DNA of 64,000 bases, taken from assembly GCA_964344965.1 (NCBI GenBank), contig CAYFPJ010000001.1, forward strand, positions 22,771 to 86,770, written 5' to 3'. This DNA is from an uncultured Gammaproteobacteria bacterium. Lineage in GTDB: Bacteria > Patescibacteriota > Patescibacteriia > Magasanikbacterales > UBA922. The notes under the pieces were generated by a model. It made no database searches. It saw only the letters and a list, made by a program, of their open reading frames with translations, and was not told the DNA's origin. The number at the start of each line of letters is the position of its first letter. Positions within the stretch are counted from its first letter, which is position 1. Below are positions 7,679-36,247 of the stretch, piece by piece. The position numbers were made by a program, and so were the translations under genes.

Positions 7679-8053
7679 ATGAACATACTAGGTATTGACT
7701 ATGGTAAAAAGAGAATTGGACTTGCTTGGGTGCAGTCTGGTCTTGATGTGGTGTTGCCCTACGGAACAATTAACAATGAACAATTAACAATTAACAAACT
7801 TATTGAATTTGTTAGAGATGAAAAGATAGATAGAGTTGTCGTGGGTTTACCACTTGGTTTGGATGGGGGAGAAAATGAAAATACCAAAAAAGTTCGTGGT
7901 TTTGTAGAAGAATTTAAAAAAGAAATAAGTATACCTGTTGAATTTGTAGACGAACGTTTTTCTTCTCGTCAGGCTGATGTCATGGGTGGCGAGGTAAGCC
8001 GAGATGAGAAAGCAGCTATGGTTATTCTTCAGTCGTATTTGGATAAGGTTTGA
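7679..8053 (+). CDS. ruvX: Holliday-junction resolvase-like protein RuvX/YqgF
   Basis: MNILGIDYGKKRIGLAWV N-terminus with the RNase-H-like YqgF fold signature. Contains an in-frame caattaacaa-type tandem repeat at 7764-7798. Confidence 0.85.
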   Translation: MNILGIDYGKKRIGLAWVQSGLDVVLPYGTINNEQLTINKLIEFVRDEKIDRVVVGLPLGLDGGENENTKKVRGFVEEFKKEISIPVEFVDERFSSRQADVMGGEVSRDEKAAMVILQSYLDKV

Positions 8054-8086
8054 ATTTCAAATCACAGTTCCCCTCCTTAGAAAGCC

Positions 8087-8105
8087 ATGCCTGCCGGCAG
8101 GCAGG
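8087..8105. repeat. GC palindrome family member (gcctgccggcaggcagg)
   Basis: Seen directly. It is adjacent to an imperfect long hairpin (8104-8185) with an ACGAATATTCGT apex, and to a ccccctttccaaggggg hairpin. Confidence 0.7.
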
Positions 8106-8220
8106 GAGGGGTTAGAGGTGGTTGATTCATAGTACGAATATTCGTGGTGCTATCATCAACCCCCTCTAACTCCCCCTTTCCAAGGGGGAGGATTTACTTG
8201 GTAGATATGCCCTAATTTAT

Positions 8221-8982
8221 ATGAGAGCAATAGTACTAGCCAGACGTGACTTTCGTGAGTCCAATCAGGTGATCACAGTCTATACTCCTGACAAAGGGAA
8301 ACTCGAATTGATCGCACGTGGTCTAAAAAAAATTACAGCAAAAAACTCGGCTCATCTTGAGCCTTTTTCTTTCGTGGATATTGATACAGTGCCTGGCAAG
8401 GAATATGACTATCTGACCCGCGTCCATCCATTAGAGTATTTTACAGATATTCGTAAAGATTTGGACAAGAGTCTCGTGGCTCAGTACCTTCTCAATTTGG
8501 TCTATCGATTACTAAACATCGGTGAATCAGACAAGAGGGTTTTTGATCTTCTATACTCATGGTTTCGTTTTGTAGACAGCATAGATATTTTCAAAATTAT
8601 CCTCTTGGATTCTTTTGTTATGAAATTTTTCGCCTTGCTTGGTTTTCAGCCGGCACTAGAAGCTTGTGTGATTTGTGATCGTACTTACAGAAGTATGATG
8701 AAGGCTGATATCAAAGGTAAGCACAAACCTGGATTTTATTTTGCTGGGGGCGGATTAGTTTGCGAGGATTGTAAGCTTGAGAAAAGGAAAATAGGGGAGC
8801 AGATCGTGGATTGTGGAATTCGAGAGGTGAGTGACATGCAGATGATCTTGCGCGGAGATTGGCGAGAAGTGGCAAGTTTTGAGATTGATGAAGTAGAATA
8901 TAATAAGCTACACAAGTTAGTCTACGAGTTTGTGATTTATCATAGTGAGAAGAAGGTTGGGGATTGGGGTGAGGTGTTGTAG
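8221..8982 (+). CDS. recO: DNA repair protein RecO
   Basis: N-terminal OB region (AIVLARRDFRESNQVITVYT) and a C-terminal CxxC...CxxC zinc motif (CVICD...CEDC). 253 aa. Confidence 0.85.
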   Translation: MRAIVLARRDFRESNQVITVYTPDKGKLELIARGLKKITAKNSAHLEPFSFVDIDTVPGKEYDYLTRVHPLEYFTDIRKDLDKSLVAQYLLNLVYRLLNIGESDKRVFDLLYSWFRFVDSIDIFKIILLDSFVMKFFALLGFQPALEACVICDRTYRSMMKADIKGKHKPGFYFAGGGLVCEDCKLEKRKIGEQIVDCGIREVSDMQMILRGDWREVASFEIDEVEYNKLHKLVYEFVIYHSEKKVGDWGEVL

Positions 8983-9225
8983 ATGTTGGATCACTTCGTT
9001 TGTTGTAAATGTTTTATTGTTGTATTACTTTGTGGTATTTAATGCCTTTCATTATGTAAATTTGTCCAAGTTGGCACGAACCCCTCCTAACCTCCCCTAC
9101 GAGAGGAGGAATAATTCTGTATTAAAAAACACCTCGATGACCATCGGGGTGTTTTGATAGATTGGGAATGGGCGAGCAGCTGCAGCATGCAGATTGACCT
9201 CTGCTGCCCTCCCCCCTCCGCGTCG

Positions 9226-9387
9226 TCAGGTGACCATCGCCGCAACGATGGCCGCCAGGATGGCGACACGGAGGACGTGCATGGCGACGCGCCATGCACG
9301 AGTTCGCCGGATGGGCTCGGTGAGCCACCCGACGAACGAAGCTGCTGCCCACAAGAGGAGCAGCAGCATGATCACCACGAACCACAT
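9226..9387 (-). CDS. small hydrophobic protein (53 aa) inside a high-GC island, preceded by a perfect AGGAGG Shine-Dalgarno sequence
   Basis: The minus-strand ATG at 9387 is preceded by AGGAGGAACAA. The product is MWFVVIMLLLLLWAAASFVGWLTEPIRRTRAWRVAMHVLRVAILAAIVAAMVT. Local GC is far above the window average. Confidence 0.45.
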   Translation of the reverse strand: MWFVVIMLLLLLWAAASFVGWLTEPIRRTRAWRVAMHVLRVAILAAIVAAMVT

Positions 9388-9631
9388 TTGTTCCTCCTGT
9401 GGGTCTGGGTGAAGAAAAAGCACATTTTTGTAAATATATCTTTTCTTCACCCTATTTTTTCTAAAAATAGACTATTAAATATAACATGCTTTAGCCGTTT
9501 TGTCAACTTTTATGATCAAAAAACTTGCTTATCTTAGCAAAAAATGATAAATTACAGGCATAAGGTTTAAGATTTAAGACATAAGAATTTTCTTATCTTA
9601 TACCTTAAGTTTTATTTCTTATTTCTAAAAT

Positions 9632-10924
9632 ATGCATATTTTAATCAAAGATATCTCTAAGCATGTTGATCAAGAAGTGACGATCAAAGGCTGGCTCTAC
9701 AACAAGCGTTCTTCAGGTAAGATTGCCTTCCTTGAGTTGCGTGATGGGTCGGGGTTTATCCAAGCTATTGTTTCTCAGGCAGAAGTTAGTGAGCAAATTT
9801 GGCAAGATGTCGACAAGACTACCCAAGAATCTGCAGTAATCGTCACTGGAAAAGTTAGTAAACATCCCAAAAAAGAAAATATTTTTGAGTTGCAAGTTAC
9901 TGATTTTGTGCTGCATTCTCTTGCTCAGGAATATCCAATTACTAAGAAAGAACATGGCCCAGACTTCCTTCTCGACAATCGTCATCTCTGGCTCCGAAGT
10001 AAAAAGCAATGGGCTATCCAACGAGTCCGTGATGTAGTGATCCAGGCAATTTATGATTTTTATCATGCCAACGGATTTATAAAAATCGATACTCCAATCA
10101 TCACACCAAACGCATGTGAAGGAGCGACAACACTTTTTGGAATAGAGTATTTTGATCAGGGCGAAGTATTTCTCTCCCAATCTGGACAACTTTATCTCGA
10201 AGCAGCGATTATGTCTGTTGGTAGAGGATTTGATTTTGGTCCTACTTTTCGGGCAGAGAAAAGCAAAACCAAACGCCATCTGACAGAATTCTGGATGATG
10301 GATGCAGAGGCTGCTTATGTCGAACATGAGGAAAGCATGGAAATTCAAGAAAATATGATCGTATTTATTGTTGAGCAATGTCTTGAAAAATGTCAGCAAG
10401 AATTAGCTATCTTGGAGAGAGATCTCGAGCCACTTAAAAAAATACAAGCACCTTTCACTCGTTTGACCTATAGCGAAGCAATAGAAAAATTGAATTCACT
10501 CGGTTCAGATATAAAATTTGGTGAAGATCTTGGTAATGATGACGAAGGTACACTGACCCAGGATTCAGACGTGCCAGTATTTATTCACAAATGGCCCAAA
10601 GCAATCAAGCCATTCTATATGAAGCAAGATCCAGATAATCCAGAATTAGTGCTAAACAATGATCTAATAGGTACAGAAGGATCTGGAGAGCTAATCGGAG
10701 GATCTCAGCGTGAGGATGATTATGAGATATTGAAAGCTGCTATTGAAAAAGAAGGTCTAGAAGGAGAAGAATATCAGTGGTACCTAGATCTTCGCAAGTA
10801 TGGCTCTGTGCCTCATTCTGGCTTCGGTCTAGGATTAGAAAGGACTGTAGGGTGGATATGTGGTGTGAAGCACATCAGAGAGACTATCCCTTTCCCAAGA
10901 CTTATCAATAGAGTCAGACCTTAG
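9632..10924 (+). CDS. asnS: asparaginyl-tRNA synthetase (class IIb)
   Basis: N-terminal OB anticodon-binding domain and class II motifs (FRAEKSKTKRHLTEFWMMDAE, GSGELIGGSQRE, GFGLGLERTV). At 430 aa the length fits AsnRS rather than AspRS. Confidence 0.88.
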   Translation: MHILIKDISKHVDQEVTIKGWLYNKRSSGKIAFLELRDGSGFIQAIVSQAEVSEQIWQDVDKTTQESAVIVTGKVSKHPKKENIFELQVTDFVLHSLAQEYPITKKEHGPDFLLDNRHLWLRSKKQWAIQRVRDVVIQAIYDFYHANGFIKIDTPIITPNACEGATTLFGIEYFDQGEVFLSQSGQLYLEAAIMSVGRGFDFGPTFRAEKSKTKRHLTEFWMMDAEAAYVEHEESMEIQENMIVFIVEQCLEKCQQELAILERDLEPLKKIQAPFTRLTYSEAIEKLNSLGSDIKFGEDLGNDDEGTLTQDSDVPVFIHKWPKAIKPFYMKQDPDNPELVLNNDLIGTEGSGELIGGSQREDDYEILKAAIEKEGLEGEEYQWYLDLRKYGSVPHSGFGLGLERTVGWICGVKHIRETIPFPRLINRVRP

Positions 10925-10932
10925 ATTTTTGT

Positions 10933-12129
10933 ATGCCTGAAGGTGGTGGAAAACACGACATGGATCCCAAAGTTTCTGGACCAGATGATGCTGATTTTGT
11001 TGCTGCCCCGGAAGAAGAGGTGGTAGAGCAAGAAGCCAGATTTGAAGATGAGCCAACAGACGTTGCAGATTCGATAGAGAATGAAGAAGAGCGGGCTGTT
11101 CGACAGCAATCTCTGGAAGAGTTGAAAGCTGCTTATCTTGGCTATAGAATTAACCAAGACGGAAAAGAATTATCTTTTGCTGGGGCAATTGATAGAATTG
11201 AATCTCTAGCAGAAAAAATTTCTGGTTTTACTGCTGAAGAACAGTCTGAACAAGAAAATTACTCAGATGTGGATGGTGATGAATCAACCTTGGTTTATTC
11301 TGCCATAGACTCAAAGCTTAATGATATTTTTGTTTTTTCCTCTGAAAACGATTCAAGTAGAGAATTGAAAAGTAGTATTGAACAAAAATTTGATTCAGTA
11401 CTTGATAAAATCAAGAAGTTATTTTCTAGCGATGATACCATTGATGAACAAAAGATGGAGGAACAGATTAATAATATTTTGAAGAATTTTTTCAATTTTC
11501 TTGATAAATTATACAATAAATTGACCGCTGAGGGAGATGAAGAAGATGCTGCATCTTCTTTTAGAGAAGATTTGGCTACTTTAGATGAGGATGATTATTT
11601 CGATGATGAGCAAGAGGAAATAAAAGATGCTTCTCACTTACGTTTGGTTTCAACTGCTACTGATGATACAGATGAGAATAATGATGATGACGCAGCTGCG
11701 GCAGCTACCATGCTCCTTCTCAATAATGACGAAGCAGAAGGTTCCTTTGGTGCTGTAACAAAAGATCCTGAGATCGGCGAGAGGTGGAAGAAAATGATTG
11801 TCAGTGGATTTATGAACGGTTCTTTAATTAGAGAGAGTGACGGATCTTATAAAATGGAAGTTCGCAATCCGGTGATTCCATGGATTGCAGATAAGCCGGA
11901 AGAATTTTTCCGTAAGAATTATGAACGCCATGCCGGTGATCCAGAATATTTTTCTACCCGCCGTAATCCAGCTCGCGATGGAGAATTTTTTCCACGTGAG
12001 GTGTTTTTGGATGAGACTGGGACAGCATTAGACTTGTATATCAATGGACGATTTGATGAATTTGCCAGCACTGAGGCGGGGAAGAATTTTTATGCTGAGG
12101 AGCAGAGCCCCTTTGAGATAGCGGCATAG
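10933..12129 (+). CDS. hypothetical highly acidic protein (398 aa, D/E-rich)
   Basis: Complete ORF tightly following asnS. No recognisable domain. Confidence 0.55.
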   Translation: MPEGGGKHDMDPKVSGPDDADFVAAPEEEVVEQEARFEDEPTDVADSIENEEERAVRQQSLEELKAAYLGYRINQDGKELSFAGAIDRIESLAEKISGFTAEEQSEQENYSDVDGDESTLVYSAIDSKLNDIFVFSSENDSSRELKSSIEQKFDSVLDKIKKLFSSDDTIDEQKMEEQINNILKNFFNFLDKLYNKLTAEGDEEDAASSFREDLATLDEDDYFDDEQEEIKDASHLRLVSTATDDTDENNDDDAAAAATMLLLNNDEAEGSFGAVTKDPEIGERWKKMIVSGFMNGSLIRESDGSYKMEVRNPVIPWIADKPEEFFRKNYERHAGDPEYFSTRRNPARDGEFFPREVFLDETGTALDLYINGRFDEFASTEAGKNFYAEEQSPFEIAA

Positions 12130-19473: not shown

Positions 19474-19495
19474 GGCGTGCGTTTAATTATTTTCG

Positions 19496-19579
19496 TGCCG
19501 AAGGAGGGACTTGAACCCTCAAGAGCTTGCGCTCGCAGCATTTTGAGTGCTGTGCGTTTACCAATTTCACCACTTCGGC
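19496..19579 (-). tRNA. tRNA-Leu (anticodon CAA)
   Basis: Reverse complement: GCCGAAGTGGTGAAATTGGTAAACGCACAGCACTCAAAATGCTGCGAGCGCAAGCTCTTGAGGGTTCAAGTCCCTCCTTCGGCA. Cloverleaf with long variable arm. Close to E. coli tRNA-Leu(CAA). CCA is not encoded. Confidence 0.8.
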
Positions 19580-36138: not shown

Positions 36139-36210
36139 GCTCTCGTCGTTCAACGGATAGGACACCAGTTTGCGGAACTGGCAATGCAGGTTCGATTCCT
36201 GCCGAGAGCA
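36139..36210 (+). tRNA. tRNA with anticodon GCG (reads as tRNA-Arg)
   Basis: GCTCTCG-TC-GTTC-AACGGATA-GGAC-A-CCAGT-TTGCGGA-ACTGG-CAAT-GCAGG-TTCGATT-CCTGC-CGAGAGC-A. All four stems pair. U33 and G37 are present. Confidence 0.75.
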
Positions 36211-36247
36211 CTATTTTTGAAGGTTTTGTACTACGTACGTTTCCTAC

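Follow-up and report, generated by a model that had tools for sequence, protein, structure and literature searches.

Membrane type I toxins are hydrophobic helical peptides of fewer than 60 amino acids, usually with a single transmembrane helix and generally with their cationic residues in the C-terminal domain (PMC8309996). The element described here is a GC-rich island at positions 9165-9412 of a 64,000-nucleotide stretch of contig CAYFPJ010000001.1 (positions 22,771 to 86,770, assembly GCA_964344965.1; hereafter the window). The island lies between recO and asnS and carries, on the minus strand, an open reading frame (ORF) for a 53-residue peptide that is likewise short, hydrophobic and predicted to be helical. 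Like a type I toxin-antitoxin (TA) module, the putative gene forms a stand-alone intergenic cassette; its predicted 5' untranslated region (5'UTR) is long and structured, and its predicted mRNA is compact and stable. Again as in type I modules, such cassettes are patchily distributed, with tandem copies in one genome. Unlike a type I module, the cassette has no antisense partner that we could find, its Shine-Dalgarno (SD) sequence is not consistently sequestered, and it has no sequence similarity to such systems. In addition, the peptide is predicted to form a hairpin of two helices around a central loop that is basic, whereas the toxins have one helix and a cationic C-terminus.

Other small membrane proteins offer a different comparison. 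Pmp3/YqaE (PF01679, ~50 amino acids, two helices), AcrZ, KdpF and CydX resemble the window peptide in size, in predicted helical-hairpin or short membrane topology, and in being encoded by short ORFs that often go unannotated. Unlike these proteins, the window peptide has no Pfam or NCBIfam match and is not encoded in an operon with a partner complex; furthermore, the genes for Pmp3/YqaE, AcrZ, KdpF and CydX are not known to us to form GC islands of this sort or to have mRNAs with a similar surplus of structure. Class II holins and pinholins are also small, with two predicted transmembrane helices, but the window peptide is shorter than typical holins and lacks a charged C-terminal domain, and its gene is found in neither a lysis cassette nor a prophage and has no PHROG or phage sequence match. 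At the level of DNA, yeast mitochondrial GC clusters, Rickettsia palindromic elements and REP-like repeats are, like the island, short runs of GC-rich, near-perfect hairpins in AT-rich intergenic regions. Unlike these elements, the window cassette is present as a single copy at a fixed, conserved locus, has a promoter, an SD sequence and a terminator, and is coding, with conservation of its amino acids.

From the evidence below, we think that the island is probably an independently transcribed gene for a 53-residue peptide with two hydrophobic helices, and a member of a family of such cassettes.

Coding evidence for the small gene

A preliminary description of the window had reported a jump in GC content between recO and asnS, and this jump is real. 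The GC content of 9201-9400 is 0.65, compared to 0.386 for the 64 kb as a whole and 0.525 for the runner-up among the 200-nt bins. Across 9150-9399 the GC content is 0.59-0.70 per 100-nt window, peaking at 0.70 at 9200-9349, and the composition changes abruptly at both edges. In the whole 64 kb, the island is the sole site where a 150-nt window exceeds the mean by at least 0.20. Minor GC peaks elsewhere in the window fall at tRNA-Leu(CAA) (19495-19579) and tRNA-Arg(GCG) (36139-36211).

An identical island is present in assemblies from three runs of one project, generated by two pipelines, with 100% identity that includes both junctions. Run ERR2281805 gave a 667-bp MEGAHIT contig, ERR2281803 a 10.9-kb Logan contig and ERR2281802 a 1.8-kb MEGAHIT contig; the lone mismatch in 1.8 kb among the assemblies is at 9997, within asnS. 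The island is single-copy within the window, and a tblastn search of the window and the first 83 relative loci found no paralogue of the peptide.

The ORF (9226-9387, minus strand; 53 amino acids plus TGA, MWFVVIMLLLLLWAAASFVGWLTEPIRRTRAWRVAMHVLRVAILAAIVAAMVT) has exactly the translation quoted in the preliminary description and lies behind a perfect SD sequence, AGGAGG (9393-9398), which is followed by AACAA (5 nt) and the ATG. Further upstream is a promoter (9478-9519, minus strand) with the -35 hexamer TTGACA (9506 to 9501), a 17-nt spacer, TGT, and the -10 hexamer TATATT (9483 to 9478). It scores 11/12 and has a TG ahead of the -10. GC contents at the first, second and third codon positions of the ORF (GC1, GC2 and GC3) are 0.64, 0.47 and 0.83. 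The earlier impression of high-GC codon usage atypical for this genome was thus confirmed, since GC3 in host genes is at most 0.43: it is 0.29-0.41 for recO, asnS and the next gene (0.33 for asnS), and none of the credible ORFs of at least 150 amino acids in the window exceeds 0.43.

An open frame by itself is weak evidence for a gene here, because 15.6% of shuffled versions of the island contain an ATG-initiated ORF of at least 50 codons and five of the six frames are open over the island. The combination of GGAGG, a gap of 4-9 nt, ATG and an ORF of at least 50 codons is found in just 0.15% of the shuffles. Furthermore, three-base GC periodicity (high GC3, low GC2) is seen in the ORF frame (p=0.0024 relative to dinucleotide shuffles), and the limits of this periodicity are the ATG and TGA of the ORF.

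A HMMER search of 1.84 billion representatives returned one other protein, P0002 (56 amino acids; E=6.9e-6; 56% identity over 41 residues). The search for homologues that had been proposed for the peptide therefore yielded one solid match, in which the ORF is intact. The two peptides share the invariant core SFVGWLTxPxRxTRxW..AM..LR, and their ORFs have the same limits. Comparison of the window gene with that for P0002, located on the related contig L084, gave a ratio of nonsynonymous to synonymous divergence (dN/dS) of 0.52 overall and 0.31 in the core, with dS ~0.9. Identities at the three codon positions are 0.58, 0.72 and 0.52, and 9 of the 23 residues that are conserved have different codons in the two genes. 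Both copies have an open frame 0, and three of the five other frames of L084 contain stops. A Pfam search with four alternative frames of the island gave no match.

We conclude that the ORF is, by these sequence criteria, a genuine small-protein gene. The suggestion of a gene for a small hydrophobic protein with its own expression signals is upheld by the promoter, the SD sequence and the coding signal. On the other hand, its proposed origin as a decayed remnant of a foreign gene is not, given the periodicity from ATG to TGA, the homologue with the same ORF limits, and the Pfam-negative alternative frames. Gene calling has not been consistent, with one assembly having no call in the recO-asnS spacer and another an 87-amino-acid alternative frame; this accounts in part for the near absence of the peptide from protein databases.

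AlphaFold2 predicts two helices, residues 2-26 and 30-52, with a mean pLDDT of 83. The mean hydropathy of the peptide is 1.42. Its arginines are at residues 27, 28, 30, 33 and 40, and its C-terminus, VAILAAIVAAMVT, is uncharged and hydrophobic. Searches of Pfam, NCBIfam, PHROGs, PADLOC and PDB sequences, using the peptide or a two-sequence profile, gave no match, and the two-sequence profile identified no related loci among metagenome and viral contigs. The degenerate codon pattern for GWLTxPxRxTRxW gave 12 matches in JGI metagenome contigs, all of them due to chance, and none in viral contigs. With blastn and tblastn, plasmids and phages yielded chance short matches or none. In Rfam, the best matches for the region, for L084 and for the whole window had E values of 0.16-0.97, far under the gathering scores.

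Related cassettes and mRNA folding

We scanned 708 kb of relatives' loci, together with the window, for TTGACA-type promoters with an SD-ATG no more than 150 nt away that opens an ORF of 35-95 amino acids with a mean hydropathy of at least 0.8. Seven cassettes were found, five of which lie in the recO-asnS spacer, all on the minus strand. These five are the window cassette, those of L084 and L029 (52 amino acids), and two in tandem in L048 (56 amino acids and 64-78 amino acids).

L084 is a 521-bp contig whose flanks have a GC content of 24-25%, compared to 51% for the ORF (GC3 0.61) and 62% for the 3' hairpin, so its cassette is likewise a GC island in its own host. At the far end, on the opposite strand, the contig encodes a RecO C-terminus (...IFIYKFLLYNTDRNIRDW...), and at the near end it has the same promoter as the window, TTGACAAAAC.GCT...TG.TATATT, indicating that the arrangement is as in the window, at least on the recO side. 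The A-rich box upstream of this promoter is also conserved in L084. L033, in which the RecO C-terminus is most like that of L084, was considered as a further carrier and rejected: a tRNA-like sequence, glnA and other genes occupy the place of the cassette. In L029, the promoter and upstream box match those of the window almost base for base, TTGATC(A/T)TAAAAG..TTGACAAAA(C/T)...TATATT(T/A)AA, and a hairpin, GGGGGAGG..CCTCCCCC, lies directly 3' of the stop. A GGGAGG/CCUCC-type hairpin just past the stop is present in L084 (329-381), as in the window and L029. The tandem small membrane-peptide cassettes of L048 (3175-3940, minus strand), between recO and asnS, have near-identical promoter modules, AAATTGCAAGGTTGACAG, and in the recO-proximal unit the SD is predicted to pair inside a long 5'UTR hairpin.

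The cassettes share a plan that is recognizable in each: a near-consensus sigma-70-type promoter, a predicted 5'UTR of ~60-85 nt with at least one long hairpin, a strong SD, an ORF of 52-56 codons, a GC-rich hairpin after the stop, and then a putative terminator, a function that the hairpin itself appears to serve in the L048a cassette. We consider it fairly likely that they constitute a small, previously undescribed family, located on the minus strand of the recO-asnS spacer in a minority of Magasanikbacteria-like Patescibacteria.

Other GC-rich or cassette-like sequences were seen in the loci of relatives. In L106 (1331-1578, minus strand), the spacer 3' of recO, which is here followed by aspS, has at the same place a TTGACA promoter similar to that of the cassettes and AGGAGGAAACAATG, together with a hydrophilic ORF of 20 codons and a terminator that is bidirectional; this element may be a decayed cassette remnant or a small RNA. 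GC-rich islets are common (L027 618-902; L041 5306-5589; L019 2531-2791; L048 6987-7281; L083 1724-1991; L018 25-244). Most contain an SD-preceded candidate orphan ORF of 60-79 amino acids with a GC3 of 0.68-0.84, for which the best Pfam and PHROG matches (E 0.03-0.06) are not significant; the L018 islet has no such ORF and folds at z=-7. A GC-rich patch just 3' of asnS in L077 (2228-2479) gives ..CHSRESGNP.. and ..VIPAKAGIH.. in translation, which we take to be typical of REP-like palindromic repeats.

We compared GC3 and RNA folding for four of the cassettes, expressing the folding of transcripts as z relative to shuffled controls and that of the coding sequence (CDS) as z relative to synonymous-codon permutations. 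Host GC3 was that of asnS or, for L084, of ~30 RecO codons counted by hand. GC3 of the small ORF is raised in every case: 0.83 versus 0.33 in the host for the window, 0.61 versus about 0.30 for L084, 0.64 versus 0.33 for L048a, and 0.35 versus 0.14 for L029. The idea of a constant GC offset in all members was weakened by L029, where the total GC content of the CDS equals that of the locus (0.28), with GC3 still raised. Transcript z is -10.0, -9.9, -5.7 and -6.0 for the window, L084, L048a and L029, respectively, and CDS z is -5.2, -1.9, -1.8 and -1.8, compared to a mean of -0.13 and a minimum of -2.0 for host gene segments.

For the window and L084, the two loci compared by strand, the mRNA is predicted to fold more stably than the complementary strand (-178 versus -164 kcal/mol and -148 versus -122 kcal/mol, respectively) and has more G-U pairs (11 versus 3 and 15 versus 8, respectively), which suggests that the target of selection is the sense RNA and not a DNA cruciform. 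Conserved pairing over the whole CDS was considered and rejected, as just one hairpin, that at 9302-9337 over the FVGWLTxPxRxT codons, is at the same position in the window and in L084, with 10 shared pairs and one compensatory change from C-G to U-A. What is conserved, as far as folding predictions can tell, is therefore the modular plan (5' hairpin, 3' GC hairpin, terminator) together with a general tendency to fold. The GC island itself probably arises from GC-ending codons and from GC-rich hairpins within and after the CDS.

The host is, judged by its protein matches, a Patescibacteria genome near Candidatus Magasanikbacteria: its asparaginyl-tRNA synthetase (AsnRS) is matched at 87% identity by the enzyme of a metagenome-assembled genome labelled Parcubacteria, and most of the next-best matches are labelled Magasanikbacteria. 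In the closest relative, GCA_002793015.1 (RecO 74% identical), the recO-asnS spacer is 270 bp long and is without the small gene, and the asnS promoter and leader are almost unchanged. At least 40 further relatives also lack the cassette. Phylogeny is discordant at the recO/asnS junction, as seen over 7679-10924. Identities to the window are 71% for RuvX, 74% for RecO and 60% for AsnRS in L099, which is the closest for the first two proteins, and 52%, 39% and 87%, respectively, in L004; by eye, the promoter and leader of asnS share roughly 80% identity with those of L099. This suggests that the asnS coding region has been replaced or has recombined, and recombination over the junction may have contributed to the patchy presence of the cassette. 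On the simplest reading of these comparisons, the cassette would be an old, dispensable, fast-evolving resident that has often been lost and once duplicated, and not a recent import.

Features of the transcription unit and its neighbours

An A-rich box, TTGATCATAAAAG (9519 to 9507, minus strand), lies upstream of the -35 of the small-gene promoter. With the start of transcription placed from the -10, the 5'UTR would be ~75 nt long (9399-9471). It contains an 8-bp inverted repeat (9470 to 9452) and a 20-bp hairpin (9452 to 9407), and on the plus strand this hairpin together with TATTTTTTCT (9453-9462) resembles an intrinsic terminator. The mean unpaired probability of the SD is 0.56 in the window copy, and in ~26% of the ensemble the SD is paired with CUCCU at codons 10-11.

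Within the CDS, a 16-bp hairpin (9302-9337) covers the FVGWLTEPIRRT codons. Adjacent to it, a perfect 11-bp palindrome, CGTGCATGGCG / CGCCATGCACG (9276-9300), over the RAWRVAMHV codons, is found in the window copy only. A 13-bp "clamp" helix (9215-9274) would pair codons of the second helix, CCUCCGUGUCGCCA, with the stop-spanning UGACGACGCGGAGG and would enclose an 11-bp hairpin (9256 to 9229); the CUCCG...CGGAGG of this clamp recurs in L084. The 3'UTR has a GC-rich 14-bp hairpin, GGGGAGGGCAGCAG...CUGCUCGCCCAUUCCC (9164-9214). It is followed by a predicted bidirectional terminator (9120-9155), common to recO. The 12-bp stem (9126-9138/9143-9155) of this terminator precedes U6 in the minus-strand reading and U4 in the plus-strand reading. 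The small gene is thus, in its predicted signals, a complete and self-contained transcription unit, with promoter, 5'UTR, CDS, 3' hairpins and terminator. Near the shared terminator, between it and the recO stop, is a CCTCCT...AGGAGG inverted repeat (9083-9110), which resembles the purine-rich arm of the 3'UTR hairpin as a direct repeat (78%).

The convergent neighbour is recO (8221-8982, plus strand), identified by Pfam. On the other side, asnS with its promoter and leader extends from 9525 to 10924 on the plus strand (CDS 9632-10924, also identified by Pfam). The asnS promoter, TTGCTT-17-TGaTAAATT (9525-9553), is divergent from that of the small gene, with 18 bp between the -35 boxes. A palindromic box, TTGCTTATCTTAGCAA (9525-9540), overlaps the asnS -35, and the leader region (9519-9631) also contains a TAAG-rich inverted repeat. 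Both are nearly unchanged in L099 and partly kept in L004, and they have no Rfam match. This may be an uncharacterised regulatory leader. Downstream, 3' of asnS, is an ORF for a very acidic protein of 398 amino acids (10933-12129), for which no Pfam family reaches threshold; an ORF of 81 amino acids takes its place in the closest relative.

Alternative explanations and proposed role

Several observations weigh against treating the island as one member of a coding family shaped by RNA folding. Since five of the six frames are open, the open frame alone is no evidence for the gene. The statistically solid sequence homologue is that of L084 alone. The L029 peptide is ~15% identical and is linked solely via promoter, layout and locus, while the L048a peptide aligns end to end but weakly to the family profile (hhalign E=1.3e-3, probability 18%). 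CDS structure beyond what the coding requires is strong in the window copy only, with the other members at z of ~-1.8, and just one CDS hairpin is at a matching position in the window and L084 copies. The window copy is also extreme in GC content relative to its own family, including its perfect palindrome. The five open frames would fit a different reading, that of a structured non-coding RNA or of clustered GC-rich palindromes with an incidental ORF, as would the fold z of ~-10 on both strands and a CDS that is more structured than its codons demand. This reading is disfavoured by the strong SD, by the codon periodicity bounded by the ORF, by amino-acid conservation with synonymous changes and a dN/dS below 1, by a frame 0 that is open in both copies when three of the five other L084 frames have stops, by helices that mostly shift position between copies, and by the single copy in the window and the lack of an Rfam match, and we judge it highly unlikely. 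Recent transfer from a high-GC organism, with the codons not yet ameliorated, would explain a GC3 of 0.83 in a genome with gene GC3 of at most 0.43, the absence of the cassette from the closest relative, and the discordant phylogeny over the junction. A recent acquisition of this kind had been raised in the preliminary description, but searches of 1.84 billion representatives, 5.8 billion clusters, JGI and viral contigs, plasmids and phages yielded no homologue from a high-GC source. The sole relatives of the cassette, in AT-rich Magasanikbacteria, occupy this same locus and share its AT-rich promoter. Moreover, GC3 is still raised in every host despite the deep divergence from L084 (dS ~0.9), so something seems to maintain the bias, given that a foreign signal would be expected to decay. 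We regard such a transfer as improbable. An assembly chimera or a remnant of a phage holin or lysis gene, suggested by the abrupt edges and by the two hydrophobic helices, respectively, has hardly any likelihood: contigs from ERR2281802, ERR2281803 and ERR2281805 agree over both junctions, and there is no match to phage or plasmid DNA or protein or to PHROGs, no phage context, no endolysin among the housekeeping neighbours, and no charged C-terminal tail or domain.

A type I TA-like module is a more serious alternative, and we consider it possible, though doubtful. In such a module, the peptide would damage membranes, and its translation would be curbed by folding of the mRNA and by an antisense RNA, either in cis or as read-through from recO. 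A hydrophobic helical peptide of 53 residues fits the published description of membrane toxins (PMC8309996). Also in accord with this idea are the strong promoter of its own, the long structured 5'UTR and very stable fold, the patchy distribution with clustering at a single locus, the L048 tandem pair with its duplicated promoters, and the fast divergence of the peptide compared to the conserved promoter. Sequestration of the SD is predicted for L084 (unpaired probability 0.19) and for L048a, where the 5' hairpin contains it. However, the window copy has a mostly open SD (0.56), and consistent sequestration over the members was not found. The basic residues lie in the central loop rather than in a C-terminal tail, and two helices are predicted rather than one. 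Searches of Pfam, NCBIfam and PADLOC gave no match; Pfam, at least, should presumably include the described families of type I toxins. The literature searched links no type I TA system with Patescibacteria. A search for the antisense partner that had been anticipated identified no antitoxin RNA gene and gave only weak promoter-like sites on the opposite strand. In the window (TGaTAGATT, -10 hexamer at 9158) as in L084, these lie in the stretch that separates the 3' hairpin from the terminator. These antisense promoters score 8-9/12 and are not demonstrably conserved. In addition, the 5'UTR hairpin with its T-run would terminate plus-strand transcripts. A type I-toxin-like role of the peptide is plausible by analogy.

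Most likely, the gene specifies a small helical-hairpin membrane peptide, which may be either a benign modulator or a toxin, from a hairpin-rich and probably long-lived mRNA. We propose that the peptide would insert into the cytoplasmic membrane as a helical hairpin and act there, with its basic loop, EPIRRTRAWR, presumably facing the cytoplasm, and that the chain of hairpins probably gives a long-lived mRNA with slowed translation. A bolder proposal, which we advance as speculation and think rather unlikely, is that the recO-asnS cassettes are the first family of RNA-controlled small membrane toxins (type I-like) in Patescibacteria, kept at one hot-spot and repeatedly lost or duplicated. In that case, selection for a hairpin-rich mRNA, and not a foreign source, would drive local GC3 to as much as 0.83 in a 39%-GC genome, and the antitoxin would be an antisense RNA or recO read-through ending at the 9407-9452 hairpin.

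Local anomalies in GC content and codon usage are routinely attributed to misassembly or horizontal transfer; the one described here is the mark of a small gene that is resident. Because GC3 is also raised in the related cassettes of AT-rich relatives, our results suggest that the mRNA itself is under selection. The family is new, of a general kind that is already known, and adds an unannotated group of small proteins to the candidate-phylum bacteria (candidate phyla radiation, CPR), in which small proteins are largely unexplored. For organisms that do not grow in culture by themselves, it also provides a candidate for a peptide that acts like a toxin or modulates membranes.

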